Below, piece after piece: positions 32,358-51,257 of a stretch of DNA of 64,000 nucleotides. The position numbers and the translations under genes are program-made. Where the stretch lies: the NCBI GenBank assembly GCA_036574075.1, contig JAINCN010000031.1, forward strand, positions 386-64,385, given 5' to 3'. Under the pieces are notes generated by a model. That model was not told the DNA's origin and did no database searches. It worked only from the letters and a program-made list of their open reading frames with translations. How positions within the stretch are numbered: the stretch's first letter is position 1; each line of letters opens with the position of its first letter. The DNA is from Deltaproteobacteria bacterium. Lineage in GTDB: Bacteria; Desulfobacterota; Dissulfuribacteria; Dissulfuribacterales; UBA5754.

Positions 32358-32397
32358 TTGTCACGAAAATGCCACCAAAATGTAACGCAATCGTCAC
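32358..32397 (+). promoter_or_regulatory. four heptamers at 11-bp phasing (Pho-box-like array)
   Basis: TTGTCAC-gaaa-ATGCCAC-caaa-ATGTAAC-gcaa-TCGTCAC at 32358, 32369, 32380 and 32391. On the coding strand 37 nt upstream of the 805-aa ORF. Confidence 0.5.
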
Positions 32398-32433
32398 GCA
32401 TCCGATGTCAAGGCGTGGTATGGCTCGAAAGAG

Positions 32434-34851
32434 ATGCAAGCACGCCTTTTTGTTACCATGCCCATGGAGTCCGACGGAAACGCCCATGTCTTTCTCCGGG
32501 GTCATCTTTCAGGGCTTCCGTTTTCTCCTGCCGACGTCACTGCAGGCGTGGAGAACGAGCTCCAGGCGGTCGTAAAGGGCAGCCGGGACTCCGTTGACCT
32601 GCCCCTCGCCATTGCGGGGTCCAACTACTATGCGAACATCGTGAAAAGGGCCGTCTCTGGCGAGGCCAGAAGGCGCGAAGTGACTGCACTTGAAGACTTC
32701 CTCGCCGCAAATGACGAGGGGGTCTGGGAACACAGTTGGGTCCGTTTCCCCAGAAGGTGCCTCTCGCCCGGGGCCGTCGAGATCCTCGAAGAGGATCTTC
32801 GGGCAGACAGGCGTGATCCTGATTCTGGCCCTCGGAGGGACAGGGAGCGGTTTCTTTTTGAAAAGGCGGGTGAAGACTGGGTCCGGGTCCCAGTGAGTTA
32901 TCTCTTGAAGATCGCCCTTGCGGACGCCGTCCTCTCGCCCGGGCCTCTTCCCAGGGGAATCCGGCTCGCCGGGCGTGCCCTTTTGGACCACTTCCTGAAC
33001 GACAACGTCTCCCCGGAGACCACGTCCTTTTTCGTGCACGAGGGGGGCGGCGGATGGGGGCCGGGACGGGCCGCGGCACTGGAGACGGCCCTCCGCTATC
33101 TCCTGACCCAGCTCATTGTCCGATACGCGAACATCAAGTTCGACCTCGTCCAGAACGATCAGGAGGTCGTGGTGTACTTCGCTCCGTGCCCTCCGGTCCG
33201 GCTCAGGGAGCTTAACGAGATCATATCGGACGCCTTCTACGCGGAGCTCTTTGTGAGTCCGTGTCTTTCAGGCTGGGATCGGGGCGAGGAAAAATATCGC
33301 TACATGCTCCTCTGCCACCAGGTCCTTGGCAGGAGCCAGCTCAACGCCATCGGCAAGCTCCGGGACGCGGGGATCGTCACGAACAACCTGGTCGTCCTGC
33401 CCAATACATCCCACATCGGGCTTGCAAACAACGGCACCCACGTGACCCTCGGGAGCAAGGCACTGACGCGTCTCCTTGCCGAGGGGCATCCCTGGTTCGG
33501 CCCACGCCAGGAAAAGTACATAGGGGACCTGGTCACCAAGGTAGTCGAGCACTTTCTGCCCCTTTTCGTCGGCACGTACACGGCCGCGCCCTGGAGGCTC
33601 TCCTTTGCGGAATTCCATCCGGAAAAGGTCCTCGGTTACCTCCCCCATGAGCTCGACTTCACCCATCTCAGGATGATATGGAGGCGCTGGAAGGGAAAGG
33701 CCCGTAACAAGGTCCTCGGAAGGGCCTTCACCCCATTCGGCCCCCGATGGATCGATCGTCCCCTGAGTGCCCTTCTCGGGCTAAAGGGGGATTTCGTGCC
33801 TGATTTTCGTCTCGTGGACTATTTTGTCTCCCTCATGAGCACGGAGAGCTCTCCGGGGCTTGACGGAAGACTTGGCAATCAAGAACGTCTCAAACGGGAT
33901 CTGGCCACCCTTGGGGTCTTCGACCCTGCCATGGCGACCTATCTGCTCTTTCGCCAAAGGGAATACGAAAAGTCTGGTTTTTTCGGCTTCGAGGCCAGGC
34001 ACTACAGCCTTTTTGAGGGATTCGACCGGGATATGACCCCTGCGGTGGACCTTCAGGCCCTCGTGACAGCCTTTGCCTTTAGGTCTGTCCTCCATTCTGA
34101 GGTCCGCCATGAACACATTCCGGACGATCCCGAGACGGAAAGCGAGCGGAGGCAGATCTTTTTCGGGGCAGCCATCGGGATCCCCACCTTTTTCGTGAGA
34201 AAGGGCACACGGAACGCCTTTTTGAAAAGGGTCATGGAAAGGACGGAAAAGGTGAGGGAGAGCAGGAGATATCCGGGCTTTCTCCGGGTGCATAACGATG
34301 AATACAGAAAGGCCCTCGTCCGCGTCCTCCGGGAGGACGGGGCCGATCTCATCGAGGATTTCGGTCTGGAGGACACGGTCAGGGATCTGTCCGAAAGGTT
34401 CGAACTGCACGGGGAAAAGGACGCACTTTCCCGCATTACCTCAGGGGTCATCCAGACCGCTGGCCAAAGGGATGCCTTCTCTTGTGAGGCGCGCGCCTTT
34501 AACGTGGCCGCTGAGCGATATTTCCGTACGACCCTTCGCCGCAGGCACGTAACAGAGGCTTACGCCTTTTTCAAGGAGACGATCCGATCCCTCGAGGGGT
34601 CAGGCGCCCTTGACGGGCGGCAGGAACGGGAATCAATCCGGGCCGTCCTCAAGGGGCGATCCGCTCTGGAGATCGTCCAGGAAGCGGAAAAGGACATCTG
34701 CCAGGATGCCGCCCACCTCGATTTGACCGTCCGGATCATCCATCTTCTCATTCTTGTAATCCACATCCTGGCGGGCCGAAACACGGCCGTGCATCCATTC
34801 GAGGAGATCATTTCCCATGATGCACCAGTATATCGAACGGGAATCGGGTAG
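32434..34851 (+). CDS. orphan 805-aa protein, no family recognised
   Basis: Long ORF with coding-like third-position GC. No motif I can assign, and only a hydrophobic C-terminal segment (LTVRIIHLLILVIHILAG). The start could also be 32458 or 32464. Confidence 0.7.
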   Translation: MQARLFVTMPMESDGNAHVFLRGHLSGLPFSPADVTAGVENELQAVVKGSRDSVDLPLAIAGSNYYANIVKRAVSGEARRREVTALEDFLAANDEGVWEHSWVRFPRRCLSPGAVEILEEDLRADRRDPDSGPRRDRERFLFEKAGEDWVRVPVSYLLKIALADAVLSPGPLPRGIRLAGRALLDHFLNDNVSPETTSFFVHEGGGGWGPGRAAALETALRYLLTQLIVRYANIKFDLVQNDQEVVVYFAPCPPVRLRELNEIISDAFYAELFVSPCLSGWDRGEEKYRYMLLCHQVLGRSQLNAIGKLRDAGIVTNNLVVLPNTSHIGLANNGTHVTLGSKALTRLLAEGHPWFGPRQEKYIGDLVTKVVEHFLPLFVGTYTAAPWRLSFAEFHPEKVLGYLPHELDFTHLRMIWRRWKGKARNKVLGRAFTPFGPRWIDRPLSALLGLKGDFVPDFRLVDYFVSLMSTESSPGLDGRLGNQERLKRDLATLGVFDPAMATYLLFRQREYEKSGFFGFEARHYSLFEGFDRDMTPAVDLQALVTAFAFRSVLHSEVRHEHIPDDPETESERRQIFFGAAIGIPTFFVRKGTRNAFLKRVMERTEKVRESRRYPGFLRVHNDEYRKALVRVLREDGADLIEDFGLEDTVRDLSERFELHGEKDALSRITSGVIQTAGQRDAFSCEARAFNVAAERYFRTTLRRRHVTEAYAFFKETIRSLEGSGALDGRQERESIRAVLKGRSALEIVQEAEKDICQDAAHLDLTVRIIHLLILVIHILAGRNTAVHPFEEIISHDAPVYRTGIG

Positions 34852-35821
34852 GATCCGTACCGAGGTCTTCTTTGGTGAATCGCTCGTGAAGTTTCTCTAT
34901 GGTCCGGTTCGTGAAAATGCCCCGGCCCTGTTTGATATCCTCACGTCGGCACGCATATCCTCCTTTCTGGGATTTCTGAACTACGATGTCTTTCTCGGCC
35001 AGCGCATCAACAGGCGTTTTTTCCAGGACTTAGGGATCGACCTCTCCGAGTGTCTCGACCCACCACATACCCTTGACACGCCCCGAAAGGTCTTTGAGCG
35101 CAAGATCCGCTACTGGGAACTCCGGCCACTTGCGCATGGACAGGATAGTATCCTTTCCCCTGCTGATGCGAAGGCATTCGTGGGCTCCCTTCGAAAGTCA
35201 TCGAGCCTGTTCGTCAAGGGGAAGTTTTTCGATCTCGCGGAGCTCCTCGGAGAGGAAAGAGGCGGCTGGGTCCCTGCCTTCCAGGATGGGGACTTCGCCG
35301 TATTTCGGCTGACGCCTGAAAAATACCACTACAACCACGTCCCGGTCTCTGGAAAGGTCCTCGACATCTACGAGATCCCCGGGAGATATCATTCCTGCCA
35401 TCCGGAGGCGGTCCTCTCGATTCCCACCCCCTATTCCAAAAACAAGAGGGTGGTGACGATCCTGGATACGGACCTGCCCGGGGGGACCGGGGTCGGCCTC
35501 GTCGCCATGGTAGAGATCGTGGCCCTCATGATCGGTGGGATCGAGCAGTGCTACAGCGAAGAGCGTTACGACTACCCACAACCGATCACACGCGGGCTCT
35601 TTCTTCGGGCAGGCTGTCCCAAGAGCCTCTTTCGCCCTGGGAGCAGCACGGTGATCCTGCTCTTTCAGAAGGATCGGGTCATTTTCGAGGAGGACATCCT
35701 TCGTAATCAGAACACTGTCAACGTGGAGAGTCGCTACAGCCTCGGGTTAGGCCGCCCGGTGGTGGAGACAGAGGTCCGTGTTCGATCTGCAGTCGCACGG
35801 GCGAGGAAGGTCAGGTCATGA
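34817..35821 (+). CDS. phosphatidylserine decarboxylase-family proenzyme
   Basis: 334 aa with FRLTPEKYHYNHVPVSG (PSD DYHR-type motif) and the self-cleavage motif FRPGSSTVILLF (GS|S/T). Overlaps the preceding ORF by 35 nt. Confidence 0.8.
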   Translation: MMHQYIERESGRIRTEVFFGESLVKFLYGPVRENAPALFDILTSARISSFLGFLNYDVFLGQRINRRFFQDLGIDLSECLDPPHTLDTPRKVFERKIRYWELRPLAHGQDSILSPADAKAFVGSLRKSSSLFVKGKFFDLAELLGEERGGWVPAFQDGDFAVFRLTPEKYHYNHVPVSGKVLDIYEIPGRYHSCHPEAVLSIPTPYSKNKRVVTILDTDLPGGTGVGLVAMVEIVALMIGGIEQCYSEERYDYPQPITRGLFLRAGCPKSLFRPGSSTVILLFQKDRVIFEEDILRNQNTVNVESRYSLGLGRPVVETEVRVRSAVARARKVRS

Positions 35822-36873
35822 CGATCTCTGCCCTCGTTTTTCTCGCCGGGCTTTCCGTCTTTTTGGGCATATCTCTTTTTTGGGGCATACGCGTCCTTCC
35901 GGGTGAGAGGTGGCAGATGCTCGCCTCAGTGCCCATTGTCAAGGAAAAGGACGGGACATGGTCCGGCCTAAACCTGACCTATTATGGTGCGCTCACGGCA
36001 AATTCCTATGTCCTTGCTGCGGCGGTCTTTCTCGTCCTTCTCGCCTCGGTCGGGGTCCCGGTCTGGCTCTCTGTTTCCGGGGTCGTCCTGGTCCTTGTCG
36101 TCTGCATGCCCCTTTCACGGGTCATCGCGGGGGTCGTTGAAGGAAAGCGCCACACCTTTACCGTGGGCGGGGCGTCTTTTGCCGGGCTCATGCTGGGACC
36201 GCCGGTCTTTTGGGGCCTGAACGCCGTGGCAGATGCCCTTGGGGCCGGCGCGGTGGAGGTGGCCCCGGCGGTCACGGCCATGGCAGTCGCCTATGCCTTT
36301 GGGGAAGGGTTGGGAAGGCTCGCCTGCCTGAGCTTCGGGTGCTGTTACGGACGGAGGCTGGAGGAGGCGCCCCGCTTTCTTCAGCGGATGCTCATGGGCT
36401 GGGGTACGGTCTTTACGGGAAAGACCAAGAAGGCGGCCTACGAGTCCGGGCTGGACGGGGTGAGGCTCGTCCCGGTACAGGCCATGACAGCAGTCCTTTA
36501 CGCCGGAACTGGGCTCGTATCGACCGGCCTTTTTCTTCTCGGCTGGTACCGGTGGGCCTTTCTCTTGGCGGTCCTTGTCACCCAGGGGTGGCGGGCGTGG
36601 TCAGAGACACTTCGGGCAGATTTTCGGGGTGGAGGGAGGATCAGCGCCTATCAGTGCATGGCCGTTGCGGCCATGGCATATGCCGTCCTCCTTGCCTGGT
36701 TCCTCCCGGACGGAAGCGGCAGGTCCGATGTGCTCATGGGGATGAAGGCCGTCTCGAATCTCCCAACCGTCCTTTTCCTCCAGGGGCTCTGGATCGTGAG
36801 TTTTCTTTATACCGGCAGGAGTTCTGTGACGGGATCAAAGGTCACGTTTTACGTCTTCTCAGAGAGGATTTGA
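35818..36873 (+). CDS. Lgt-like (prolipoprotein diacylglyceryl transferase family) polytopic membrane protein
   Basis: 351 aa with about 7-8 hydrophobic helices and a GRLACLSFGCCYGR motif resembling the Lgt GRxGxFxNGxxxG block. ATGA overlap with the PSD gene stop. Confidence 0.55.
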   Translation: MTISALVFLAGLSVFLGISLFWGIRVLPGERWQMLASVPIVKEKDGTWSGLNLTYYGALTANSYVLAAAVFLVLLASVGVPVWLSVSGVVLVLVVCMPLSRVIAGVVEGKRHTFTVGGASFAGLMLGPPVFWGLNAVADALGAGAVEVAPAVTAMAVAYAFGEGLGRLACLSFGCCYGRRLEEAPRFLQRMLMGWGTVFTGKTKKAAYESGLDGVRLVPVQAMTAVLYAGTGLVSTGLFLLGWYRWAFLLAVLVTQGWRAWSETLRADFRGGGRISAYQCMAVAAMAYAVLLAWFLPDGSGRSDVLMGMKAVSNLPTVLFLQGLWIVSFLYTGRSSVTGSKVTFYVFSERI

Positions 36874-38068
36874 TGGATGAGGCGGCGTCTTTGAGGATCT
36901 CCGCCTTGTCCGTCATCTCCCACGGAAGACCCAGGTCGGCCCGACCGACCTGTCCGTACGCGGCCAGTTTCTTGAAGAATCCGCCCTTTATCATGCGGGG
37001 CAGATGGCGAAGCCTGAACTGTTTGAGGATGCCGGCCGGACGGAACTCGAAGTGTTCAGAGAGGAGACGCACGATCTCCTCGTCCGGGACCTTGCCGGTC
37101 CCGAAGGTCTCGACCAGGATGCTGACAGGCCTGGATCGACCGACTGAATAGCTCACCTGGACCTCGCACTCGTCGGCGATCCCGGCGGCCACCACATTCT
37201 TTGCGGCGTATCGCGCGGCATAGGCGCCTATGCGGTCCACACGCCTCGGATCCTTGCCGCTCAGGGCGGCGCCGCTGTGCCTGGCGTATTCTCCGTAGGT
37301 GTCGATGGCGTTCTTTCGCCCGGTGAGCCCTGAATGGACCGCGGGCCCGCACCCCAAATGGGAAAAATCGGACCGGATGTCGATGTTCGTGTCTGCGTCC
37401 GGGCGGATCTCCTCCTCCTTGAAGACCTCGTCGATGACCGTCTCCTTGACGTCGTCGAAAAGCCTCTTGGGATCGGCCGATTTCTTCACGCATGTCTGGA
37501 TCGTGATGGTCTGGATCCGGCTCGGTCGTCCATTTTTGTATTCCACCCCCACCTGGGTCTTGGCGTCAGGCGTGAGATAGGGAAGGATGTTCGTGTAACG
37601 GACCCGTGAGATCTTCCTGGCGAGCCGATGGGCAAGGAAGATGGGCATGGGCATGAGGACAGGCGTCTGATTGCAGGCATAGCCGAAGGCGTTGGCCTGG
37701 TTGCGTACCGGAATCCGCTCGATCTCGTCCTCGTCGATGGCCAGCTCGTCGAAACGGAGGGCTTCTTCGAGGGGCTGTTCCTTGAGGCTCGTGAGCGCTG
37801 TGCAACTCCGTCCGCTGAAGGCCTCGTCCCGGTAGCCCACCTCGTTGATGATCTCCCTGGCCACATACGGGACGTCCACAACCGCTGTCGAGGCGAACTG
37901 GACCGCGAGGAAGACGATGGACTGGGAGATGGCGCATTCGGCGATGATGGACGAGAGGGAGTCCTGCTGGAGGAACCTGTCCACGATGGCGTCGCTGATC
38001 TGGTCACAGAGTTTGTCCGGATGTCCTTCCGTGACCGATTCTGAGGTGAAGAGAAAATCCTTTCTCAT
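36842..38068 (-). CDS. divergent S-adenosylmethionine synthetase (MetK-family) protein
   Basis: 408 aa from ATG 38068, which overlaps the ATPase stop (ATGA). N-terminal FTSESVTEGHPDKLCDQISD. PDAKTQV, GLTGRK and SGKDPRRVDRIGAYAARY are conserved, but the GAGDQG and GD(C) motifs are altered (see findings). Confidence 0.8.
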   Translation of the reverse strand: MRKDFLFTSESVTEGHPDKLCDQISDAIVDRFLQQDSLSSIIAECAISQSIVFLAVQFASTAVVDVPYVAREIINEVGYRDEAFSGRSCTALTSLKEQPLEEALRFDELAIDEDEIERIPVRNQANAFGYACNQTPVLMPMPIFLAHRLARKISRVRYTNILPYLTPDAKTQVGVEYKNGRPSRIQTITIQTCVKKSADPKRLFDDVKETVIDEVFKEEEIRPDADTNIDIRSDFSHLGCGPAVHSGLTGRKNAIDTYGEYARHSGAALSGKDPRRVDRIGAYAARYAAKNVVAAGIADECEVQVSYSVGRSRPVSILVETFGTGKVPDEEIVRLLSEHFEFRPAGILKQFRLRHLPRMIKGGFFKKLAAYGQVGRADLGLPWEMTDKAEILKDAASSIKSSLRRRKT

Positions 38069-41000
38069 GGCGATGGCCTTTTTCGTTTTTTGATGGACTC
38101 GTTGATCAGGAACGGGAGGCATGCGGCGCATCCCGTAACGACCGCATCCACGGCCCCGATCGCTCCTATTCCGAGGAGGGAGCGGAGGCCGGGAAGGAAA
38201 AGGGCTGCCCCCTGAAGGGCCAGGGATCCGCCCACGGCCGCATGGAGATATGGGTTGGGCCGGGAGGCGACCTCGAAGGCGTTTTTCGTCTCAGACCTGC
38301 AACTGTACGCATGTAGAAGCTGGGAGGTGGTGAGGGACAGGAAGGCCATGGCGCTGGCCCCGGGGCCCACACCGTGGCGGAGGATGCCGTAGCCGTAGGC
38401 CCCGAGCGTGGAGACGCTGATGATGGCCGCCTCCCGGCCGATTCGGTGCATGTCGTCACGCCTGACGATCGCCTCTCGCGGATCCCGCGGGGGATGATCC
38501 AGGACGTCCGCCTCCGGGGCCTCCATGGAGAGGGCAAGGCCGGGAAAGATGTCCGTCACGAGGTTTATCCAGAGAAGCTGCATCTCCGTCAGGGGCTGCC
38601 CGGTCCCGAGGATGTTCGACACAAAGGAGACCATGATCTCGCTCATGTTGGTGGAAAGGAGATACCCGAGGGACTTGCGGACATTGGCATAGATGGTGCG
38701 GCCCCGGGAGATGGCAAGGATCATGGTCTCGATCCGGTCGTCCTCGATGACCACGTCAGCCACCTCGCGGGCCACGTCGGTCCCGGTCTCTCCCATGGCC
38801 ACACCCACGTCGGCCGCCCGTAGGGCAGGGCTGTCGTTCACCCCGTCCCCGGTCATGGCCACGACCTTTCCGGCCCCCTGGAGGGCCTGGACGATCTCGA
38901 GCTTGTTGGCTGGGCTCACCCGAGAAAAGATGCTCGCCCGCACGGCGAGTCCTTGAAGTGCCTGGGGATCGAGGTTCGAGATGTTGGAAGAATCGAGGAT
39001 GACCAGTTTGTCCTCTCCGCTGATCTCGAGTTCCTTGCCCACGGCAAAGGCGGTCGGAGACTGGTCTCCGGTGATCATGACCGTGTCGATCCCCGCCCGG
39101 TGGAAACGTCTGATGAGCTCCTTGACCCCGGGCCGAATGGGATCCGTCATGCCGGTAAGCCCAAGCCAGGTAAGGTCCTGTGTGAGGACCTCGTCATCCG
39201 GAAGGGGATCCCCGTCAAGGAACTTGTAGGCAACCCCGAGGACCCGGAGCGCCCTGCCTGCCATGCGTTCGTTCTGCATGCGGATCCTCATGATGTCTTC
39301 TTCCTCGAGGGGGCACTGCGCACCTTCGAGGATCCAGGTGCGGCACAGGGCCAACACCTCCGAGGGGCTACCCTTGACGGCGACGAAGTGGCGACCGGAG
39401 GGGAGGCGATGGACGGTCACCATGAAGTTCCTTTGTTCGGCCCTATGAAGGATCTTGACCCGAGGGGTGTTGGTTTTGAGACGATGGATGTCGATACCGC
39501 CCTGCACGGCAAGGGCGAGTAGGGAGTTTTCCGTGGGGGTCCCCTGGATCTCGAAGTCGTTTCCGTTGCGAGGAATGATCTCGCTTTCGTTGCAGAGGGC
39601 GCATACTACGAGGATTCCCCTGAGCTCGTCGGCGATGTCAAGCCCATCCTGCGGGCAGGGAGCGAGGGACCATTGCCCGTGGATGGGGACGACCTTCTCG
39701 CCTGCGTAAAGCTCCACGACCTTCATGCGGTTTTCTGTTATCGTCCCGGTCTTGTCGAGGCAGATGACCTGGATAGCGCCCAGGGCCTCGATGGCGTCCA
39801 GATGCCGGATGAGGATGTTGTGACGCCTCATGTCACGGACCCCGAGGGCAAGGGTCGTTGTGGCCACGGTGGGAAGGCCTTCTGGGACCGCTGCCACGGC
39901 GAGAGAAATGGCGGTCTTGAGCATGGGCAGGAGTCCGTGGCCTCTAAGGAGACCGAGAACGAATACGAGCCCGCAGAGGACGCCGGAGATGGCCACGAGT
40001 CGGGTCCCGATGGCGTCAAGCTGGCGCTCCATGGGTGTCTCAGGCACTTGTGCCTCGCCGACCAGGGTCTGGATCCTGCCCATTTCCGTGTAACGCCCCG
40101 TGGCGACGGCGATGGCAAGCCCCTGTCCTCCGGTAACAAGGGTGCCCATGTAGCACATGTTCGTCCGATCGCTCAAGGGAATACTACCTTCGGATGCGAT
40201 GCGCAGAGGGTTTTTCCCGACCGGAATCCCTTCTCCGGTGAGAGCGGATTCGTCGATGCTCAACCTTGCTGACTCGACGATGCGGGCGTCGGCAGGGATG
40301 TAGTTTCCAGGCCGAAGTACGATGAGGTCTCCGGGGACGATCTCCTCAGCGCCGATCTCCAGGAGTTTTCCTTCCCGTATCGCAATGGCCCTGGGGCGTA
40401 CGAGCGTCTTAAGGGAGTGGATGGTCTTTTCCGCCTGACTCTCGGTTATGTAGCCTATGATGGCGTTGATGACCACGACCCCAAGGATGACGGCAGCGTC
40501 CATAAGTCCGCCCGTGAGGGCAGAGATGCCAGATGCCAAACCGAGGAGTGCCACGGGAACCGAGGCAAACTGCCCGAAAAAGATCTTGAGCCCTGAACGG
40601 GGAACCGCCTCTGGCAGGACATTCGGGCCAAACCTTCGGAAACGTTCTTGGGCCACGATGGAGGAAAGGCCGTCGCGGGGCGAGGTCTCGAGAAACCGTG
40701 CCACCTCGTCAGACTCCATGAGGTGCCAAGCAAGGGCCTTTTGTTCCTCAGATGTACTGACCAGCCTGACGAGCCGACGCCTGGAGATTGCGGATTTCTT
40801 CTTTTTAGTGGATCGGTTCGGGGGATCGTATGCAGATAGAGAGAGGGTTTTCCCTACTCCTACAACGGGTTTTGAACCGTTCCTCGATTTGACGACCGCT
40901 TCAACAATGGAGATGACCTGCGCAAGTTCCTGAGTCGCCGGAAACGTGACGAGAAGGTGACCGGTCAAGGGGTTGGCCTTGGCCTGGGAGATCAACTTCT

Positions 41001-42751: not shown

Positions 42752-43131
42752 GTTTTTTCCCTCCCATTTTATATTCATGAGGATACCGAAATATTAAACT
42801 TACGCAAACGGGAAGATTCATTACTTTCCTCATGGAGATTGTTAGCAAAAGGATACCGATAGATAGTGTATCATGGGTGCATGATTGACGCCGCCTCCAA
42901 CCTCTTCGACACAGCGACCTTGCTCGTCCTTCTGCGCCATGCCGAGCAGGAGAATGATTTGCTGCGCGATCAGATCCGTTCTCGTTCAAAAAGGCCCGAG
43001 ATGCAATGCGCGATACTTTCCCCTCCCCATCCCTACCCAGCGGGGGAGGGGAAGGGTGGGGGATCATCAGCCGCATGGGCTGAAAAATCGAAGTAACGCC
43101 GCGAGAATCGGGTTTTTCAGTGGGATCAGGG

Positions 43132-43500
43132 CTATATGAGCGCTGATACAAAGGAGAGGCCCATGGATTCAAGGGCCTTTTCCGCGGTGTATCCGAAGAT
43201 GGCCTTTCCGATAAATTCACCGGCGACCGCGGCCTGCCTGCTGACAAAATCCTCCTGTTCGATCTTTGTGCGGTCGAAATAGCCCGAGTTTTCCAGGGTC
43301 GTGAGGATGATGTCGTGATGGAGGACGTTTTTGTCGTACGTGATGAGGATGCTTCCTGTTGTGGTGTTGGTCTCGACGGACCTCACTCCCCGGAGCTGGC
43401 GCACTATGGTAGAGACATGTTCGGCCCGTGCGGGATTCTTTTTGATCAATGGGGTCTTGATCCGGATCCTGCCCGCAACCTCATGAAGATAGTAGCTCAT
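43132..43500 (-). CDS. HMA-like domain protein (copy a)
   Basis: 122 aa from ATG 43500 (SD GGAGAGG). Contains AGRIRIKTPLIKKNPARAEHVSTIVRQLRGVRSVETNTTTGSILITYD. The 206-aa track ORF is a 5' over-extension. Confidence 0.7.
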   Translation of the reverse strand: MSYYLHEVAGRIRIKTPLIKKNPARAEHVSTIVRQLRGVRSVETNTTTGSILITYDKNVLHHDIILTTLENSGYFDRTKIEQEDFVSRQAAVAGEFIGKAIFGYTAEKALESMGLSFVSALI

Positions 43501-43772
43501 GATGTCCTCTCCATGTATATGATCTTTTTGTAAGTTTTGCACATGGGATATTTTGAGCACCTGAATCTGATGCAGGTCTTCTCCCGCCTGTAAACGTACA
43601 TGATGTGCCCGCATAAGGGACAAACAAGTCGGGATCCCGGAAGTAATTTTGGCTCTGCGGAGCCGGAATACTGCCGGCCGCATGACATGCAAAGATAGCG
43701 TTGTTTTCCTCTTCCGGTCTTGCCATATCGGTAAAAGGTGTCTGATCCGCAATCAGGACAGCGTATTTCCAT
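43497..43772 (-). CDS. double zinc-ribbon protein (IS1 InsA-like ribbon plus topoisomerase-type C4 finger)
   Basis: 91 aa from ATG 43772: MEIRCPDCGS..GKQRYLCMSCGRQY then CPLCGH..FRCSKYPMC. ATGA overlap with the next gene. Confidence 0.65.
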   Translation of the reverse strand: MEIRCPDCGSDTFYRYGKTGRGKQRYLCMSCGRQYSGSAEPKLLPGSRLVCPLCGHIMYVYRREKTCIRFRCSKYPMCKTYKKIIYMERTS

Positions 43773-43796
43773 ATAACTTCTTAATACCGCTTGTTT

Positions 43797-43836
43797 GTTA
43801 CAGGCGTGTGACAAAATTGTGACAATTCTGTGACAA
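43797..43836 (-). promoter_or_regulatory. two tandem Pho boxes (four heptamers, 11-bp phasing)
   Basis: Minus strand reads TTGTCAC-agaa-TTGTCAC-aatt-TTGTCAC-acgc-CTGTAAC. A TATTAA hexamer (43781-43786) lies 10 nt downstream and the ATG follows 8 nt after it. Confidence 0.7.
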
Positions 43837-43951: not shown

Positions 43952-44254
43952 ATGTCCCGCATCGTGATCGAAAAAAGGCATGCACTTGGCGTCGATGAGG
44001 CATGGCGCCGAATAGTTCCGATTATCGAGGAAGCGGCCCGGACCTATGGCCTCGATGTCACTTGGGAAGATGGCAGATGTTTTTTCACCGGTCCGGCAAC
44101 CGGTCATGTGAATGTGTCTGAGGAATCTGTGCGTCTCGATGCGCGGCTCGGATTTGCCGCCCTCCTTTTTCGTTCCGCCATCGAGAGGCAGGTGCGGGAG
44201 GGCCTTGAAAAGGCCCTAAGTGACCTGGAAGATGATTACGATCTTGGTGCTTGA
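43952..44254 (+). CDS. polyhydroxyalkanoic-acid-system family protein (TIGR02610-like)
   Basis: 100 aa from ATG 43952. The pattern I.IEKRHALG...W..G...FTG...G.V.V....V.LDARLGF...F...IE..V...L matches my recollection of this small family. Confidence 0.6.
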   Translation: MSRIVIEKRHALGVDEAWRRIVPIIEEAARTYGLDVTWEDGRCFFTGPATGHVNVSEESVRLDARLGFAALLFRSAIERQVREGLEKALSDLEDDYDLGA

Positions 44255-44286: not shown

Positions 44287-45006
44287 TCATCCTAAGACGG
44301 TATGGTTCAGTTCCTCTATGGGCTTGTGGCGAATATCCTTTCCCTTCACGAGGTAGATGATCGCCTCGCCGATATTTTTGATGTGATCCCCTATCCTCTC
44401 CAGGGAGCGGGCGGTCCAGATCATGTTGAGAGAACAGGGAATGAGCCGCGAGTTTTCCATCATGGCGAGAACGAGTTGACGAATGAGTGCTTCGTACTTG
44501 TCGTTGATGTCGCGATCCGCACGTATTACGGCAATAGCCTTTTCCAGCTCCAGATGTTCAAAGGCCGCGAGGACATCGCGCAAGGAAACTAGGATATTTT
44601 CTCCGAGATCCATGACGACGTGCGTGACAGGGTGCTCACCCCGTCTGCATCCTTCATCGTTGTCGATGACAAGCCAGGCGATTTTTTTTGCCTCGTCACC
44701 TATGCGTTCGAGATTGCCTATTATAGAGTTGACTGTCACAACGAGACGAAGATCGGATGCCGTCGGTTGACGGGTGGCAAGGATCTCGGTGCAGGCCTCG
44801 CTTATGGAGATGTCGAGCGCGTTGACTTCAGCATCCCGGGCGATCACTTTTTTCGCCTTTTCGATGTCCCCTTCCCGTAGGACACGGAGTGAATCATAGA
44901 CCTGGGTGGCGACGTATTTACCCATGCCAAGGGTACGGTCTATGATTGCCTCAAGTTCGACATTGAATTCTTCCGAGATGTGCGAGACAAATTTTTTTCT
45001 GTCCAT
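44287..45006 (-). CDS. phoU: phosphate signalling complex protein PhoU
   Basis: 239 aa from ATG 45006 with two PhoU repeats (ERIGDEAKKIA, ERIGDHIKNIG). The track ORF extends 73 codons further into MITE copy 4, which is an artefact. Confidence 0.93.
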   Translation of the reverse strand: MDRKKFVSHISEEFNVELEAIIDRTLGMGKYVATQVYDSLRVLREGDIEKAKKVIARDAEVNALDISISEACTEILATRQPTASDLRLVVTVNSIIGNLERIGDEAKKIAWLVIDNDEGCRRGEHPVTHVVMDLGENILVSLRDVLAAFEHLELEKAIAVIRADRDINDKYEALIRQLVLAMMENSRLIPCSLNMIWTARSLERIGDHIKNIGEAIIYLVKGKDIRHKPIEELNHTVLG

Positions 45007-45121
45007 GGAGAGCTCCTTGAAGGATATCCTCTCAGGGGATGGTCTTAAGTATCTGATCTTCTCTCGGCGCTTGGATGATCTCCAACTAACGGCATGATTT
45101 CCTTTGCTTCCGAATCTGCTT

Positions 45122-45296
45122 CCTGAATCCGTGAGCCTACGGCCGGGGTATTTGTTTCGTGCGGCAAATAGCCCCCATCCATGGGGGCGGATTTGCCGTT
45201 CGAGCCCCGTCCATGGGCGCCTCACTTTACAAATACCCCGGCCGTAGGCTTATGCTGTGAAATCGAAGGGTTGAGTGCATATCTCACGGATTCGGG
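45122..45296 (-). mobile_element. MITE-like repeat, copy 4 (175 bp)
   Basis: TIRs CCTGAATCCGTGAG / CTCACGGATTCGGG. Flanked by direct TGCTT (45117-45121 and 45297-45301). Lies between the pstB stop (45304) and the phoU start (45006). Confidence 0.85.
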
Positions 45297-45303: not shown

Positions 45304-46140
45304 TTAACCGTAGCGTCCTGTGATATAATCTTCTGTTCTTTTGTCTTTTGGGTTTGTGAAGAGGGTTTTGGTATCCTGCATTTCGATCATCTCTCCGAGA
45401 TACATGAAGGCAGTGAAATCGGAGACACGGGCTGCCTGCTGCATGTTGTGCGTAACAATGACGATAGTGAACTGGCTCTTGAGTTCATAGATGAGTTCTT
45501 CGATCTTGTAGGTGGAAATAGGATCGAGGGCGGAGCAGGGTTCATCGAGGAGGATCACCTCGGGCTCGATGGCAATGGCTCGTGCGATCACGAGGCGCTG
45601 CTGCTGACCGCCTGAGAGCCCTAAGGCGTTGTCCTTGAGCCGATCGGCGACCTCGTCCCACAAGGCGGCCCTTTTAAGGGATCTTTCCACGACCTCGTCC
45701 AAGGTCTTTCGATTTTTTATCCCCTGGATCCGAAGCCCGTAGGCCACGTTTTCATAGATAGATTTGGGAAACGGATTGGGTTTTTGGAACACCATGCCGA
45801 CTCGTCTTCTGAGGTCAGCAACGTTGATCGATTTGTCATAGATGTTTATCCCGTCGAGGAAGATCTCTCCTGTCACACGGCAGCCGTCCACGAGGTCGTT
45901 CATCCGGTTGAAACAGCGGAGCAGGGTTGATTTGCCGCATCCGCTCGGGCCGATAAAGGCCGTGACCTGATGGCGAGGAATGGCCATGTTCACATGAAAG
46001 AGGACCTGTTTAGATCCATAGAAGAGGTCGAGATTCTTTACCTCTATGATGACATCTTCCGGATCGACCCCGCCTTCTCGCTTGCTGAACGCCTTGTTAC
46101 GTGCGGCCAGGTCGATGCCGTGCTTTGTGGTTTCATTCAT
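45304..46140 (-). CDS. pstB: phosphate ABC transporter ATP-binding protein
   Basis: 278 aa with Walker [10 protein letters not shown], signature LSGGQQQRL, and the PstB-specific C-terminus. Confidence 0.98.
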
Positions 46141-46163
46141 GGGCCGTGCCTTCCCGATGGGCG

Positions 46164-47813
46164 TTACGACTCTATCGCCCGGTATTTTTCCCGCAAATGG
46201 TTGCGGATAGCTATGGAAGTGAGATTGAGGATCATGATGACGACTACGAGGAGAAAGGCAGTTGCAAAGACGAGTGGACGTACAGCATCCACGTTGGGGC
46301 TCTGGAAACCCAGATCATATATATGGAAACCAAGATGCATGAACTTGCGTTCGAGATGGATAAATGGATAGTTGCCATCGATGGGGAGAGAGGGTGCGAG
46401 CTTGACCACTCCGACGAGCATGAGCGGGGCGACTTCTCCAGCGGCACGGGCGACCGCGAGGATGAGGCCGGTCATCATGGCAGGGCTTGCCATGGGGATA
46501 ATGGTCCTCCAAAGGGTCTCTGCCTTGGTGGCCCCGAGCGCCAGGCTTCCTTCCCGAATGTTGCTCGGTATCCTTGCAAGGCCCTCTTCGGTGGAGACGA
46601 TCACGACAGGAAGGGTGAGGAGGGCGAGGGTAAGGGATGCCCACAGAAGCCCAGGGGTTCCGAAGGTCGGATCCGGCAAGGCCTCTGGGAAAAAGGCCTC
46701 ATCGATCCAGCCGCCGATGAAATAGACAAAGAAACCGAGACCGAAGACCCCGTATACAATGGAGGGGACACCGGCAAGATTGTTGACCGCAATACGGACG
46801 AGACGGGTGAGAATGCCCTGTTTTGCGTATTCTTTTAGGTAAAGGGCTGCTATGACGCCAAACGGTGTGACGATGACGGACATGATGAGAACCATTACGA
46901 CCGTGCCGAAGATGCACGGAAAGATTCCTCCCTCTGTGTTCGCCTCCCGCGGGTCTTCGGTCAGGAGTTCCCACAATTTCTCCGCGTAAAAGGCGAGTTT
47001 TGAGCCGACTCCCATCTCATTCGGGCGATACGCCCTTACCACCTTGGACAGTGGGATATCCACAGTACGTCCGTCCATGATCTCGGCAGTAAAGGATCCT
47101 TTGCCGATCTCCTGATAGAGCCCGATGAGCTGATCCTGGAAGGCCTTGTATTGGGAGTCCAATGCCTCCTTTTGCCGCTCCAGCTCGGCAAATTTTTCAG
47201 GATCGGTCTCGTTCGCCAGTTCGAGTTTGCGTTTCTTCAGGCGCAGGCGTTCGATCTTGTAATTTATGGACCCGATCTCGTCCCTCTCGATATGGCGTAT
47301 TCGGTCATGAAGGGCAAGAACGCCTGGCAGCAGCTCCTGGAGCTTGGCCCAGGCGGATTCCCCTTCCGCCACAACCTTCCCGTCCACAGAGACCGATTTG
47401 ATATATCCATAGAGATTCCCCCATTCCCGCCGCTCGACGACCATGAGGGCATGTGGGTACCGGGTCTCCTTGATGGATGTCTCTGGAACCCAGCGGAAAT
47501 CGAACCCGAATTTGTCCCTGTTTCCGACCTTGACGAGATAACGTTTCTGGAGGGTGTCCGGGTCCCCTGCCGCAGATCCTGTCTTATCGGCGTGTTGTGC
47601 GGGAATTGTTTCTTCTTCAGTGATCTCTCCTATGAGGCGGCTCTGGGATCCATCCTCCACGACGATGGCTTCCATGACGTCTAAAGGCCAGAAAAAACCG
47701 AGTCCTCGGATGGCGATCAGAAGGATGATCCCGAAGACCGCGACAAGGCTTATACTCACGCCTCCGGCGCTCAGCCACACCCACGGGTCACCGCTTTTTA
47801 TCCAATCGCGCAT
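46164..47813 (-). CDS. pstA: phosphate ABC transporter permease PstA (long form)
   Basis: 549 aa: an N-terminal TM, a ~250-aa extracytoplasmic insert with a coiled coil, then the PstA permease core ([20 protein letters not shown]). Confidence 0.9.
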
Positions 47814-47825
47814 GGAGCTACCTTT

Positions 47826-50072
47826 TTAGAGAGTGCTGTATCTTTTTCTCAAACGGTGGCGCACGACCTCAGCCAGCGTGTTGAAGATGAAGGTCAGGCC
47901 GAAAAGTACGAGCCCTGAGAGAAAGAGGACGCGGAAGTGGGTGCTCGCCACCTCGGCCTCTGGCATCTCAACAGCAATGTTCGCGGAAAGGGAACGGAAT
48001 CCCTGAAAGATGTTGAGGTCCATGATCGGGGTGTTTCCCGTTGCCATGAGAACGATCATGGTCTCTCCTACGGCCCTGCCGAGGCCCATCATGACAGCAG
48101 AAAAGATCCCGGGGCTTGCAGTAAACAGCACTACCTTCTGCAGGGTCTGCCAGGGTGTGGCCCCGAGGGCGAGGGATCCTTGCGTGAGGTGTTTGGGGAC
48201 CCCGAATATGGCATCTTCTGTGATGGAGAAGATGACGGGTATCACTGCAAAGCCCATGGCAATACCGACTATGAGGCAGTTTCGCTGGTCGTAGGATATG
48301 CCGAGGTCATGGGTGATCCATTCTCGGATATTTCCGCCAAAAAATATGTTTTCGATCCCCGGAGCGAGGGTATGAGCGATGAAGCCCGTGGTGATGACGA
48401 CGGGGATGAGGAGCGCGGCCTCCCATCCCTCTGGTATGCGGCTTCGCATGTCGAGGGGAAGAAGGGACCAGAGGTACGAGGCGAGGAAGATTGCAGGAAA
48501 CATCAAGAGGATGATGAGAAAGATCTCCACGAGATGCGCCTCTGCGTAGGGGGCGAGCCAGAGGCCGGCGATAAATCCGAGAATGACTGTGGGAAGGGCC
48601 TCCATGATCTCTATGGAGGGCTTTACGATCCGTCTCATCTCCGGGCGCATGAAATGTGCGGTGTAGATGGCACCGAGGATCGCAAGTGGGATGGCGAAAA
48701 GCATGGCGTAAAAGGCGGCCTTGAGGGTGCCGAAGGTTATAGGGACAAGGCTGAACTTGGGTTCGAAGTCGTCGGTCGCAGCAGATGACTGCCAGACATA
48801 GGCGGGCTTTTCGTAATTCTCGTACCAGACCTTTTGCCACAGGGTATGCCATGAGATATCGGGATGTTCGTTGTCCACGAGCCTGAACTGGATCGTGTCA
48901 CCCGCCTGGGCAAGAAGGGCGTCGGCCCTTGGGCCCACAGCCATGGTCGCGATGCCTGTGGGTGCGATCTCTTGTGTGAGGAGCACACGGTGGGCGGTCG
49001 CGTGGTAGATCCCGAGCGTGCCCTTGGCATCAGAGGCCAAGAAACCCTTTCGTCCGTATTCGGGTGCGAGGCCTGTGATAGGAGAGCCCTGGGCATGAAA
49101 ATCCCTAATGAAGGTCAATTCGGGTGCGCCCTTGTCGGATCTCACCGGAAACCATTGGGCTATCCTGCCTGTGGATGTCCCGCATATGAGAGAGATGCCC
49201 CCGGTGAGAAGGGTGATGGCCGTCAATTCTTCACCCGGCTCTGTCACGCGCACAGTCTGGATCTTTCGTGGGGACCCAGCCTCAGTGAGGTCAAAAAAGT
49301 CCACCTCACCCGACCGGTACGCCACATACAGGGATTGCTGAAGCGGAGGGACGAGGAGGTCGAGAACGGGGCCGTGGGTGTTTCCAGCTGTGGCGTGGGT
49401 GATGTCGAGGCGCACCTCGTCTGAGAGAAAGGATCGGATCCGGCCGATTCGAACGACCTCTACGGAACCTGATTCCGTCAGGCCCGCAAGGGTGCCACCC
49501 TCCTCGTCGGCCTGAACGGCCAGGCGGACAAGGGGGCCTTGTGTGGTCACGGACAAGGGCGTCTCACCGAAAGGATAGGAAACATGGGGTGTTATGAGCC
49601 TTTTGTCGCCAGGAAACGTAACTTTGTAAGAATGTTGACATATGAGGGCCGATCCGTTCGAAAGCCCATATGCGAAGATCCCGCTCCTGGGAGAACCCGT
49701 GGCAAAGGAGGTGATCCTGGTGCCTTGTGGAATGGGTGCCACCTGTTCAAGAACGATATGGCCGTTTGATGTATCGAAAAAGGTGATCTTTCCGTCGTCA
49801 GTGAATCGGGATCCGATCTCATGAAGTTCCTCCATGGCGAGGTACAAGGTCTGCGATCCGGTCGGGCCTGGAATGGGATAGGAGACCCCTTTGGAGATGT
49901 GGGCAGGGCGGAATAGGGGGATGACGACGGAAAATAGGTAGAGAAAGATGAGAAGGAGGGCGATGATGACCCCAACGCCGCCTATCGCAACACAGTAACG
50001 GGCGAGCACGTCCTTTATCATGCGCCACGTGCGAAGCCTTACTGTCGAGGTCATATGTGTTGAATTTTCCAT
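47826..50072 (-). CDS. pstC: phosphate ABC transporter permease PstC (long form)
   Basis: Permease core with [14 protein letters not shown], preceded by a ~430-aa extracytoplasmic region. The track start, GTG 50126, lies inside a hairpin. ATG 50072 or 50054 is more plausible, so the start is uncertain. Confidence 0.85.
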   Translation of the reverse strand: MENSTHMTSTVRLRTWRMIKDVLARYCVAIGGVGVIIALLLIFLYLFSVVIPLFRPAHISKGVSYPIPGPTGSQTLYLAMEELHEIGSRFTDDGKITFFDTSNGHIVLEQVAPIPQGTRITSFATGSPRSGIFAYGLSNGSALICQHSYKVTFPGDKRLITPHVSYPFGETPLSVTTQGPLVRLAVQADEEGGTLAGLTESGSVEVVRIGRIRSFLSDEVRLDITHATAGNTHGPVLDLLVPPLQQSLYVAYRSGEVDFFDLTEAGSPRKIQTVRVTEPGEELTAITLLTGGISLICGTSTGRIAQWFPVRSDKGAPELTFIRDFHAQGSPITGLAPEYGRKGFLASDAKGTLGIYHATAHRVLLTQEIAPTGIATMAVGPRADALLAQAGDTIQFRLVDNEHPDISWHTLWQKVWYENYEKPAYVWQSSAATDDFEPKFSLVPITFGTLKAAFYAMLFAIPLAILGAIYTAHFMRPEMRRIVKPSIEIMEALPTVILGFIAGLWLAPYAEAHLVEIFLIILLMFPAIFLASYLWSLLPLDMRSRIPEGWEAALLIPVVITTGFIAHTLAPGIENIFFGGNIREWITHDLGISYDQRNCLIVGIAMGFAVIPVIFSITEDAIFGVPKHLTQGSLALGATPWQTLQKVVLFTASPGIFSAVMMGLGRAVGETMIVLMATGNTPIMDLNIFQGFRSLSANIAVEMPEAEVASTHFRVLFLSGLVLFGLTFIFNTLAEVVRHRLRKRYSTL

Positions 50073-50122
50073 TGGAGCCTGCAGGTCTTGGGCTTGCGTG
50101 TGATGCGCGTCGCAGAAAACGG

Positions 50123-50149
50123 GCACCCCTCTGGTTTGGTGAGGGGCGC
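50123..50149 (-). terminator. pstS-pstC intergenic hairpin (attenuator-like)
   Basis: Minus strand: GCGCCCCTC-accaaacca-GAGGGGTGC followed by CCGTTTTCTG. Confidence 0.45.
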
Positions 50150-50195
50150 CCGTGAGAATCTGTGAGGTTCGGCTTTTTACGACGCCATCAGGTTC

Positions 50196-51179
50196 TTATT
50201 TGATCTTCGCCAATTCTTTCTGGGCGACGTCAGCTGGAAGGGGAACGAAACCGTCCTTTACGACAATCTCTTGTCCTTCCTTTGAGAGAACGAGCTTGAT
50301 GAATTCCTGCTCAAGGGGCGGGAGGGGCTTGTTAGGGGCCTTGTTTACGTAGATGTAAAGCGGACGGGAGAGAGGATAGGTCCCGTTGAGGGCGTTCTCC
50401 TCGTTGGGTTCGACGAATTTCTCACCAGCCTTGGCGGCAAGGGGTACGGTCTTGACCCCAGCGGTCCGGTAGCCGATGCCCGAGTATCCGATCCCGTTCT
50501 TGGATGCAGTGACGGACTGGACAACAGAAGCTGAGCCAGGCTGTTCGTTTACGGTCGGCTTGTAATCACCCTTGCAGAGGGCGTGCTCCTTGAAATATCC
50601 GTATGTGCCGGAGACGGAATTCCGTCCGAAGAGCTGGATGGACTGCTTTGCAAGATCACCTCCAACCCCGAGCTGCCCCCATGTCGTGATGTCCTCGTTG
50701 TATCCACACTTGCGCGTCGAAGAGAAGATGGCATCCACCTGGGGCATGGTGAGGCCTTTGATGGGATTGTCCTTGTTCACGTACACGGCAATGGTGTCGA
50801 TTGCGACGATGATGGGGGTGGGCTTGTAACCGTACTTGTCCTCGAATGCCTTGATCTCCTTATCCTTCATGGCCCGGCTCATGGGGCCCAGGTTGGAGGC
50901 GCCTTCCGTGAGGGCCGGGGGTGCGGTGGAGGATCCTGCGGCCTGGATCTGGATGTTGACATTGGGATAATTGCGCTTGAACTCCTCCTGCCACATGGTC
51001 ATGAGGTTGGCGAGGGTGTCGGATCCGACGCTTGAGAGGTTTCCGGAGATCCCGCTCGCCTTTTGGTATTTAGGGAGGGCCGGATCCACCTTGACATCTG
51101 CGGAAACCGTTCCGGCGGCCCCAAAGACCGCTGCAGCTGCGCATACACCGAGAAACTTTCGTGCCTTTGACCTTGTCAT
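50196..51179 (-). CDS. pstS: phosphate ABC transporter substrate-binding protein
   Basis: 327 aa from ATG 51179 (SD AGGAGG) with signal peptide [30 protein letters not shown]-like sequence including GSDT and GSS motifs. Confidence 0.95.
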
Positions 51180-51239
51180 GTCATTACCTCCTAATGGGAA
51201 TGTTGCTGACAAGTATACAGATCCCATTCCGCTTGTCTC

Positions 51240-51257
51240 GTTACAATTTTGTGACAA
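51240..51257 (-). promoter_or_regulatory. Pho box upstream of pstS
   Basis: Minus strand reads TTGTCAC-aaaa-TTGTAAC, against the E. coli consensus CTGTCAT-A(A/T)A(T/A)-CTGTCA(C/T). A TATACT hexamer lies at 51212-51217. Confidence 0.75.

Follow-up and report, generated by a model that had tools for sequence, protein, structure and literature searches.

Does a bacterium that keeps two uncharacterised operons beside its phosphate uptake genes also keep them under the same regulator, and what would these operons contribute when phosphate becomes limiting? This question is raised by some 19 kb of a 64,000-nt stretch of DNA, hereafter the window, from a Deltaproteobacteria bacterium (UBA5754; assembly GCA_036574075.1, contig JAINCN010000031.1, positions 386-64,385). 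In this region the pstSCAB-phoU genes (unit 1) are accompanied by a triad of genes (unit 2), which encode an 805-residue protein (P805), a phosphatidylserine decarboxylase (PSD)-like protein and a protein resembling the diacylglyceryl transferase Lgt, and by a longer operon (unit 3, called operon 3 throughout) that extends from a Zn-ribbon gene to a Ca2+-type P-type ATPase and MetK. An original prediction, made from the letters of the sequence, had proposed that the three units share one Pho operator, and comparative genomics backs this proposal, both by the co-localisation of the operons with phosphate genes and by the recurrence of the operator-like arrays in relatives. On this evidence it is likely that all three units are controlled by PhoB, and the triad and operon 3 appear from their sequences to be members of the Pho regulon across this clade.

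Operator arrays and their recurrence in relatives

The three arrays, referred to as sites A, B and C, were found within 4 nt of the positions first proposed for them:

Site A, 32358-32401, plus strand: four units, TTGTCACGAAA ATGCCACCAAA ATGTAACGCAA TCGTCACGCAT, with the cores TGTCAC, TGCCAC, TGTAAC and CGTCAC.
Site B, 43793-43836, minus strand: four units, TTGTCACAGAA TTGTCACAATT TTGTCACACGC CTGTAACAAAC, three of them TGTCACA and one TGTAACA.
Site C, 51236-51257, minus strand: two units, TTGTCACAAAA TTGTAACGAGA, forming one Pho box (TGTCACA-AAAT-TGTAACG) upstream of pstS.

All three consist of TGTCAC/TGTAAC heptamers with 7+4 spacing in exact 11-bp phase, and each is oriented toward the gene behind it. 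Site A ends 33 nt before the ATG of the P805 gene (32434), site B occupies the divergent region that separates the Zn-ribbon gene (ATG at 43772) from a PHA_gran_rgn gene, and site C sits 57 nt 5' of the in-frame ATG of pstS (51179), which has AGGAGG 8 nt ahead of it. The Pho box of Escherichia coli is built of 7-bp direct repeats with 4-bp spacers and a core resembling CTGTCAT. A PhoB site of Desulfovibrio vulgaris, AGGTTACAGCATAGTTAC, has been validated by electrophoretic mobility shift assay (PMC6456213) and, when read on the opposite strand, is the same TGTAAC-N5-TGTAAC repeat as that of the window arrays.

These arrays stand out from their surroundings. A search for the degenerate pattern TGTMAC-N5-YGYMAC finds it six times in the 64 kb, each time inside sites A-C; from shuffled sequence 0.03 would be expected. 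A position weight matrix (PWM) was built from the ten heptamer units of the three sites and used in leave-one-site-out scans compared with shuffled sequence, and each time the omitted site was the top match outside the training set (19.3 for A, 21.7 for B and 29.7 for C; shuffle maxima had a mean of ~13 and a standard deviation of ~2, the largest being 18-22). Other positions of the window score 11 or less with the PWM, and the 64 kb contain no further array of comparable quality. Of the three, site A has the lowest score (19.3 against a largest shuffle value of 18.4) and its units are more degenerate, but all four are in phase. In an alignment with a 90%-identical relative (L001) conservation begins precisely at the first heptamer of site A; the DNA ahead of it is divergent, with an indel of 62 bp.

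The last unit of site B is followed, after 9 nt, by TATTAA, which is the E. coli geometry, and site C abuts a promoter-like GAGACA-16-TATACT. Hexamers of the -10 type lie only 8-9 nt before two of the start codons, TATGGC for P805 (32419-32434) and TATTAA for the Zn-ribbon gene (43772-43783), a distance that suggests leaderless or near-leaderless mRNAs for both genes. A search of the region against Rfam gave no match to a riboswitch or other RNA control element, such as a SAM riboswitch before metK.

Arrays of the same kind recur in front of the same operons in other bacteria. The window-derived PWM was scored in each locus against that locus's own background, taking the single best three-unit array per locus, and the target zone was defined as the 300 bp that precede, in the correct orientation, a P805, Zn-ribbon, HMA2a, DUF5132 or u226 gene (the last three, like the Zn-ribbon gene, belong to operon 3). 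The best array fell in this zone in 14 of 62 loci, with 1.4 expected (binomial p ~1e-10), and many of the remaining top arrays were upstream of pst or phoB. The same motif type is found ahead of pst genes and of the uncharacterised operons on the same contigs. In one locus of the Desulfuromonadales (L010), the triad and operon 3 stand in tandem, each preceded by a four-unit phased array and TATAGT.

Gene neighbourhood points in the same direction, and a synteny check in relatives had been part of the original proposal. When genomes were scanned with P805, 49 loci were obtained, which belong to Syntrophales, Geobacteraceae, Desulfobulbaceae and other Thermodesulfobacteriota as well as a few Gammaproteobacteria and Acidobacteria; the three triad genes are adjacent in essentially all loci of sufficient length, and the triad is conserved in ~45. 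In 13 triad loci the same locus encodes a response regulator that shares 41-49% identity with PhoB of E. coli, mostly directly upstream of P805, and the four such regulators tested all had TIGR02154 PhoB as their best NCBIfam model (254-293 bits), well ahead of other OmpR-family models. Unsupervised clustering of all open reading frames (ORFs) in the triad loci gave as recurrent neighbours PhoB (12 loci), PstB (10), PhoU (10), a phoR-like PAS-histidine kinase (10), PstS (9), a DksA-like protein (8) and PstC/A (7), and revealed no other recurrent enzyme in these loci. In the Smithella-type loci L009, L012, L025, L038 and L045, the PSD-like gene is separated from the Lgt-like one by an inserted gene for a zinc-finger protein of the DksA/TraR family (e.g., L012:4786-5190).

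A metagenome scan with the u226 protein of operon 3 likewise returned 50 loci, in ~35 of which the operon is conserved as the string (Zn-ribbon-HMA2a)-DUF5132-HMA2b-u226-ATPase-MetK. The genes pstAB/phoU adjoin it in L050/51, L064, L074 and L086/87, and PsiE-family genes lie near it in three loci (L010, L054 and L087). Two loci, L050 and L051, hold the whole supercluster in a rearranged order, with pstA-pstB-phoU, the Lgt-like, PSD-like and P805 genes on the minus strand, PHA_gran_rgn, and HMA2a through MetK on the plus strand; in both, and in L078, PHA_gran_rgn keeps the same divergent position. Thus the triad is found beside phoB, phoR-like, pst and phoU genes, and operon 3 beside pst, phoU and psiE.

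Gene content of the three units

Gene calls were based on Pfam and NCBIfam scans of the window proteins and on inspection of reading frames, and give the following map:

32434-34851, plus strand: P805, 805 aa, uncharacterised family, C-terminal hydrophobic helix.
34817-35821, plus strand: PSD-like pyruvoyl-type decarboxylase, 334 aa (PF02666, E 1e-35).
35818-36873, plus strand: Lgt-like integral membrane protein, 351 aa, Lgt superfamily.
36842-38068, minus strand: metK, S-adenosylmethionine (SAM) synthetase (TIGR01034, 352.7 against a cut-off of 309.4).
38065-41124, minus strand: Ca2+-type (P2A) P-type ATPase with an N-terminal CoBaHMA/HMA_2 domain (Pfam).
41143-41823, minus strand: u226, 226-aa repeat protein rich in Ala, Val, Gly, Glu and Lys.
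~41992-42450, minus strand: HMA2b, CoBaHMA domain plus C-terminal hydrophobic hairpin (PF19991 over residues 1-142, E 1e-13).
42458-42778, minus strand: DUF5132 small membrane protein (PF17195, E 1e-10).
43132-43500, minus strand: HMA2a, 122-aa CoBaHMA/HMA_2 protein (PF19991, E 7e-14).
43497-43772, minus strand: 91-aa double Zn-ribbon protein, first gene behind site B (matches to IS1/IS1595-type Zn-binding domains).
43952-44254, plus strand: PHA_gran_rgn small protein, divergent from site B (PF09650/TIGR02610).
44287-45225, minus strand: phoU (Pfam; TIGR02135 above cut-off).
45304-46140, minus strand: pstB (Pfam).
46164-47813, minus strand: pstA (Pfam).
47826-50126, minus strand: pstC (Pfam).
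50196-51179, minus strand: pstS (Pfam; TIGR02136 above cut-off).

The map agrees with the gene content that had been claimed, namely pstSCAB-phoU, a gene of the polyhydroxyalkanoate (PHA) system, the 805-aa/PSD/Lgt-like operon and the Zn-ribbon/ATPase/MetK operon. For the operon behind site B, these three genes are indeed present, but the listing was incomplete, as it also contains two CoBaHMA (HMA_2) genes, the DUF5132 gene and the gene of the 226-aa repeat protein. The start codon of HMA2b is uncertain, a GTG near 42450 being proposed.

P805 is the least familiar member of the triad. Of the candidate start codons only the ATG at 32434 is retained in L001; gene callers had begun the protein at Met11. 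More than 2800 homologues exist, every one annotated as 'hypothetical', no Pfam, NCBIfam or PDB sequence-profile match was obtained, and a profile search of 1.8e9 representatives returned only its own family. The many invariant His, Asp, Glu and Cys residues of the family, together with the C-terminal hydrophobic helix, suggest a membrane-anchored enzyme. A resemblance to the glutamate-cysteine ligase fold was considered and set aside, with top TM-scores of 0.27-0.31 at a probability of at most 0.06 being too weak to use. The PSD-like protein keeps the motifs of pyruvoyl decarboxylases, YHxxH (FRLTPEKYHYNHVP) and the GSS self-cleavage site (PGSSTV), and has a Pfam score of 123 bits. It remains far below the level of the housekeeping Psd equivalog in NCBIfam (best 146 bits, cut-off 371), and its matches in PDB include both E. 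coli PSD and L-tryptophan decarboxylases of the PSD fold, so that either the head group of a lipid or a free amino acid could serve as its substrate. The AlphaFold2 (AF2) model of the Lgt-like protein (pLDDT 88.6) has E. coli Lgt (5azb) as its top PDB fold match, with a probability of 1.0 and TM-scores of 0.44/0.53; the next match has a probability of 0.15, which leaves 5azb as the only convincing one. Most Lgt-like relatives carry a precomputed PF01790 match. The family-invariant motif GRLACxSFGCCYGK, when aligned by eye with the Lgt signature G-R-x-G-N-F-x-N-x-E-x-x-G, retains the Arg and Gly and has Cys at the Asn and Glu positions, which suggests an altered chemistry.

In operon 3, the ATPase carries the features of P2A Ca2+-ATPases, i.e., PEGLP with the Glu of transmembrane helix 4 (TM4), DKTGT, and the N/E and N-T-D residues of TM5 and TM6, respectively. 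Its N- and C-terminal domains are of the P2A type as well. Among solved structures it comes closest to Listeria LMCA1 and human SPCA1 (E ~1e-139), and with the NCBIfam model of PMR1-type pumps it scores 608 bits, under the equivalog cut-off of 798. Its ~130 extra N-terminal residues form an HMA_2 domain, the Pfam name for the CoBaHMA domain described from calcyanin, and the hallmark His followed by a basic beta-strand is present in HMA2a (H..GRIRIK), HMA2b (H..GRIRLRI) and the ATPase (H..GRVRLHV). The u226 protein, without a Pfam match, shows the highest conservation among the small proteins of operon 3, being 57-82% identical across the 50 metagenome loci. Its hydrophobic residues recur with a 22-residue periodicity (lag 22 = 0.34), as in amphipathic-helix repeat proteins; small residues at lag 4 give 0.02. 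The ATG of metK overlaps the stop codon of the ATPase gene (ATGA, 38065-38068), and metK follows the ATPase gene in 14 of 15 related loci (counting those with the ATPase and a length of 8 kb or more), with stop and start often overlapping or nearly abutting.

The operon varies around this core. The Zn-ribbon gene is paired with HMA2a in at least 12 loci, DUF5132 is conserved in 21, and in many relatives the Zn-ribbon-HMA2a pair is located elsewhere. Additional genes in relatives encode a third small CoBaHMA protein (10 loci), a DUF3562-like protein (9), a cation diffusion facilitator (CDF) transporter (6) and a ParA-like ATPase (5). The ParA/MinD-like gene stands downstream of metK in L066, L068, L074, L078 and L099 (e.g., L074:15316-17331), a set with which the six loci of the CDF (Cation_efflux) transporter overlap.

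Within operon 3 of the window, two direct-repeat pairs with a pair spacing of 70-71 bp are located upstream of u226 (41834-41869/41905-41940, 36 nt each and 71 bp apart) and upstream of DUF5132 (42780-42794/42850-42864). They share ACCGAAATA, which occurs in three exact copies in the 64 kb, all in operon 3, where 0.21 would be expected. Judged by sequence, these repeats may represent either an additional operator internal to the operon or Pho boxes of degenerate sequence (ATAAC-N6-TGCAC); the position of the repeat upstream of u226 is taken by Pho-like arrays in other loci. The 340-bp gap between HMA2a and DUF5132 contains a G/C-rich hairpin, CCTTCCCCTCCCC ... GGGGAGGGGAAAG, at ~43030-43080 on the minus strand, which may separate Zn-ribbon-HMA2a from the remaining genes. 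A 192-aa ORF at 42669-43247 was rejected as an out-of-frame artefact rich in Arg, Pro and Ser, the real genes there being HMA2a and DUF5132.

Several features of the flanking genes complete the picture. PstC (766 aa) and PstA (549 aa) are unusually long, with a large N-terminal extension ahead of each permease domain. The stop of acpS (PF01648, 51241-51636, minus strand) falls within Pho box C, so that part of the pstS operator lies inside the 3' end of acpS. Past acpS come ybeY/pdxJ, a PhoH-like gene and corA; the 388-aa ORF at 51640-52806 (minus strand) joins a YbeY endoribonuclease domain (aa 30-139) to a PdxJ domain (aa 150-381) and, from its sequence, looks like a gene fusion. The phoH gene had been counted among the evidence for a phosphate cluster, a use that had to be dropped because it is of the ybeZ type and belongs to the housekeeping string corA-phoH-ybeY/pdxJ-acpS. 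Directly upstream of site A, on the same strand, are genes for an NT5C-type 5'-nucleotidase and a MarC-family membrane protein (31092-32324, plus strand), with no array ahead of them; the nucleotidase could have a role in phosphate scavenging. The cluster is flanked by a response-regulator-GAF-HD (GYP-type) protein (28329-29933, plus strand) and a Crp/Fnr-type regulator (54856-55557, minus strand), neither of which is of the OmpR/PhoB type, and, as had been claimed, there is no PhoB-like gene in the 64-kb window.

Regulatory and functional readings

If the three arrays are PhoB operators, the 19 kb would be a compact piece of the Pho regulon. Following the paradigm of E. coli and the PhoB of D. 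vulgaris, limitation of inorganic phosphate (Pi) would cause PhoR to phosphorylate PhoB, and PhoB~P would then recruit RNA polymerase after binding, head-to-tail, to the TGTCAC/TGTAAC direct repeats, which are phased by 11 bp and would lie at or beside the -35 region. This would switch on high-affinity Pi uptake by pstSCAB-phoU (unit 1), the P805/PSD-like/Lgt-like operon (unit 2), and the Zn-ribbon, CoBaHMA, DUF5132, CoBaHMA-hairpin, 22-mer-repeat, Ca2+-type P-ATPase and MetK genes (unit 3), and probably also the divergent PHA_gran_rgn gene.

A number of points weigh against this regulatory reading. The best -10 hexamer at sites A and C lies ~21-22 nt past the last heptamer, one helical turn more than at E. 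coli pstS or site B; the heptamer core TGT-N-ACA is nearly palindromic, so that the orientation of an array hangs on one central base; the array background was scanned over 64 kb of the genome only; and the PWM was trained on the window's own sites, which the leave-one-out scans and the transfer to other loci mitigate but do not remove. Many triad loci have no convincing array directly upstream, and one study describes many PhoB sites of E. coli as transcriptionally inert (PMC10294691). With the degeneracy of site A, whose leave-one-out score barely exceeds the largest shuffle value (19.3 and 18.4, respectively), these last two points would fit an explanation in which only pstSCAB-phoU is Pho-regulated, sites A and B bind PhoB weakly, not at all or without effect, and the clustering is inherited synteny. 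Such an outcome is improbable in view of the four phased units that each of these sites has, more than pstS, their promoter-proximal position and correct orientation, the conservation that starts at the very edge of site A, the recurrence of arrays before the same operons in distant taxa (p ~1e-10), and the co-localisation of the operons with phoB, pst, phoU or psiE despite rearranged gene order. Sites A and B might instead be operators of another OmpR-family regulator, responding for instance to metal or envelope stress, with a family likeness to the pstS Pho box. Regulators of the OmpR/PhoB family commonly bind direct repeats phased by 10-11 bp, operon 3 encodes cation transporters and is joined by a CDF transporter in relatives, and the ACCGAAATA repeats constitute a second motif within it. 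We hold this to be very improbable, since the heptamers of A, B and C predict one another, the same motif type precedes pst and these operons on shared contigs, the regulator that recurs beside the triad is PhoB-type by its best NCBIfam match and has pst/phoU alongside, and the window cluster contains no OmpR-type regulator. Control of all three units by PhoB therefore remains the preferred reading.

What the two operons would do under PhoB control is a more tentative matter. The triad may be a membrane-lipid or amine pathway that spares Pi by remodelling lipids or head groups, a reading to which we give a little less than even weight. Its three members would be a transferase of the Lgt fold whose Cys-rich active-site motif is altered, a pyruvoyl decarboxylase and a large enzyme from a new family that is anchored in the membrane. 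For operon 3, we infer by analogy a membrane-associated system, related in design to biomineral organelles, for pumping or sequestering Ca2+ or another divalent cation. That it builds a compartment is rather unlikely, and its role would otherwise be efflux or homeostasis. More speculative still, and in our judgement quite unlikely, is the view that both operons jointly build, on Pi limitation, a membrane-bounded store of divalent cations (Ca2+) with phosphate or carbonate in Thermodesulfobacteriota, as a phosphate-controlled counterpart of ferrosomes and of the Ca-carbonate inclusions of cyanobacteria. Under that view, shaping or coating of the membrane would fall to the CoBaHMA proteins, DUF5132 and the 22-mer amphipathic repeat protein. 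The Ca2+-ATPase, tagged with CoBaHMA, would fill the compartment, to which ParA-like and CDF genes would contribute in some lineages. The triad would draw on the coupled MetK and supply a phosphorus-free lipid to the compartment or to the cell. Against these functional proposals stand the AF2 model of P805 (pLDDT 70, pTM 0.77), which has no significant PDB fold match, the fact that PSD-fold enzymes also decarboxylate free amino acids, and the sub-threshold scores of the Lgt-like protein (17.7 bits for Pfam LGT, threshold 24.9; 18 bits in NCBIfam, threshold 334). The Lgt-like family profile gave no Lgt match among PDB sequences, so that the relationship to Lgt comes from the fold search and not from a sequence profile, and metK could be a housekeeping copy retained by synteny. 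A plainer alternative is that units 2 and 3 are Pho-regulated and yet ordinary, with no new lipid or compartment: the triad would be a spare Psd and Lgt, for phosphatidylethanolamine synthesis and lipoprotein maturation in phospholipid-poor membranes, and operon 3 a Ca2+/Mn2+ efflux pump against the cation toxicity that arises as phosphate and polyphosphate buffering falls. The retained PSD and Lgt folds speak for it, as do the Ca2+-site residues of the ATPase and its nearest solved relatives, which are exporters of Ca2+ or Ca2+/Mn2+. It is nevertheless somewhat unlikely, because a large distance separates the PSD-like and Lgt-like proteins from the housekeeping equivalogs and the Lgt-like protein has an altered motif, because their invariant partner P805 is a new 800-aa family, and because a simple efflux pump does not account for the conserved set of two to three CoBaHMA proteins, DUF5132, the 22-mer repeat protein and metK, nor for the ParA-like and CDF genes that occasionally accompany them.

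Phosphate limitation shapes the anaerobic sediments and aquifers that are home to Geobacterales, Syntrophales and Desulfobulbales, in which the Pho regulon is poorly charted, and two conserved modules now appear to be phosphate-starvation genes there. The P805 family, with its more than 2800 members always accompanied by PSD-like and Lgt-like partners, may define a new phosphorus-sparing membrane pathway, and operon 3 would tie the CoBaHMA-DUF5132 set, hitherto linked to bacterial biomineral compartments, to phosphate control. Cultured carriers exist (e.g., Geomonas, Citrifermentans bremense and Geobacter pickeringii).

Comparison with known systems

A literature search found no paper describing the triad or the ATPase/MetK operon, and a study of Pi limitation in D. 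alaskensis does not mention the genes of either. In their operators, the three units resemble the Pho boxes of the PhoB regulon (in E. coli, those of pstS and phoA), with direct repeats of 7 bp spaced by 4 bp, a core of TGTCA/TGTAAC, an orientation matching that of the gene, a box before pstS, and two to four units per array, as in the strong Pho promoters of E. coli; their position would be at or next to the -35 region. They differ from that regulon in that two of the three target operons are not known as Pho members in any organism, the best -10 element of sites A and C is more distant by one helical turn, and phoBR is outside the window, although it is found beside the triad in relatives.

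Operon 3 recalls two systems that produce mineral-filled compartments. The fez clusters of ferrosomes encode a P1B-6 ATPase with D[Y/F]SCA and HNxxT motifs and R-rich or HMA accessory proteins (bioRxiv 10.1101/2020.01.10.902569). Common to both are an R-rich (RxRxR) segment at the N-terminus of the ATPase, small HMA-type and membrane-helix proteins, small hydrophobic Gly-rich membrane proteins and, in some relatives of operon 3, a second cation transporter; the ferrosome has the architecture of a membrane-bounded mineral store. In contrast to fez, the ATPase of operon 3 is of the P2A type (PEGLP) and not P1B-6, control is apparently by phosphate and not by iron, and the operon has a 22-mer repeat protein and metK and no ferritin-like or FeoA genes. 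The second system is that of calcyanin (ccyA) and intracellular amorphous calcium carbonate (iACC) in Cyanobacteria and Methylococcaceae; the neighbourhood of ccyA in Microcystis contains CoBaHMA-DUF454, two DUF5132 genes, CoBaHMA and a Ca2+/H+ exchanger (PMC8890360; bioRxiv 10.1101/2024.07.07.602159). Shared with operon 3 are the CoBaHMA domain alone and fused to a C-terminal membrane hairpin, and DUF5132 side by side with a Ca2+ transporter. Here the differences are that the transporter is a P-ATPase and not a CAX exchanger, that the host is an anaerobe of the Thermodesulfobacteriota, and that there is a link to the Pho system. No calcyanin with a C-terminal (GlyZip)3 domain was recognised in operon 3, where it was looked for without a calcyanin hidden Markov model, and u226 was rejected as a calcyanin-like GlyZip protein on account of its 22-residue periodicity and lack of a 4-residue one. 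By its predicted proteins, operon 3 thus lacks the defining features of both systems, a P1B-6 ATPase and a GlyZip domain.

The triad, for its part, invites comparison with the Pho-regulated pathways for phosphorus-sparing lipids, i.e., the glycolipids made by PlcP-Agt, the betaine lipid made by BtaAB and the ornithine lipid made by OlsBA or OlsF (reviewed in PMC12971839). It differs from all of these in having no PlcP, Agt, BtaA/B or OlsA/B/F/H. The likeness lies in a membrane-associated enzyme operon located behind a Pho box and beside phoB/pst, and in the combination of a diacylglyceryl transferase fold with a head-group-type decarboxylase, to which metK, as a supply of SAM, is adjacent in three arrangements.

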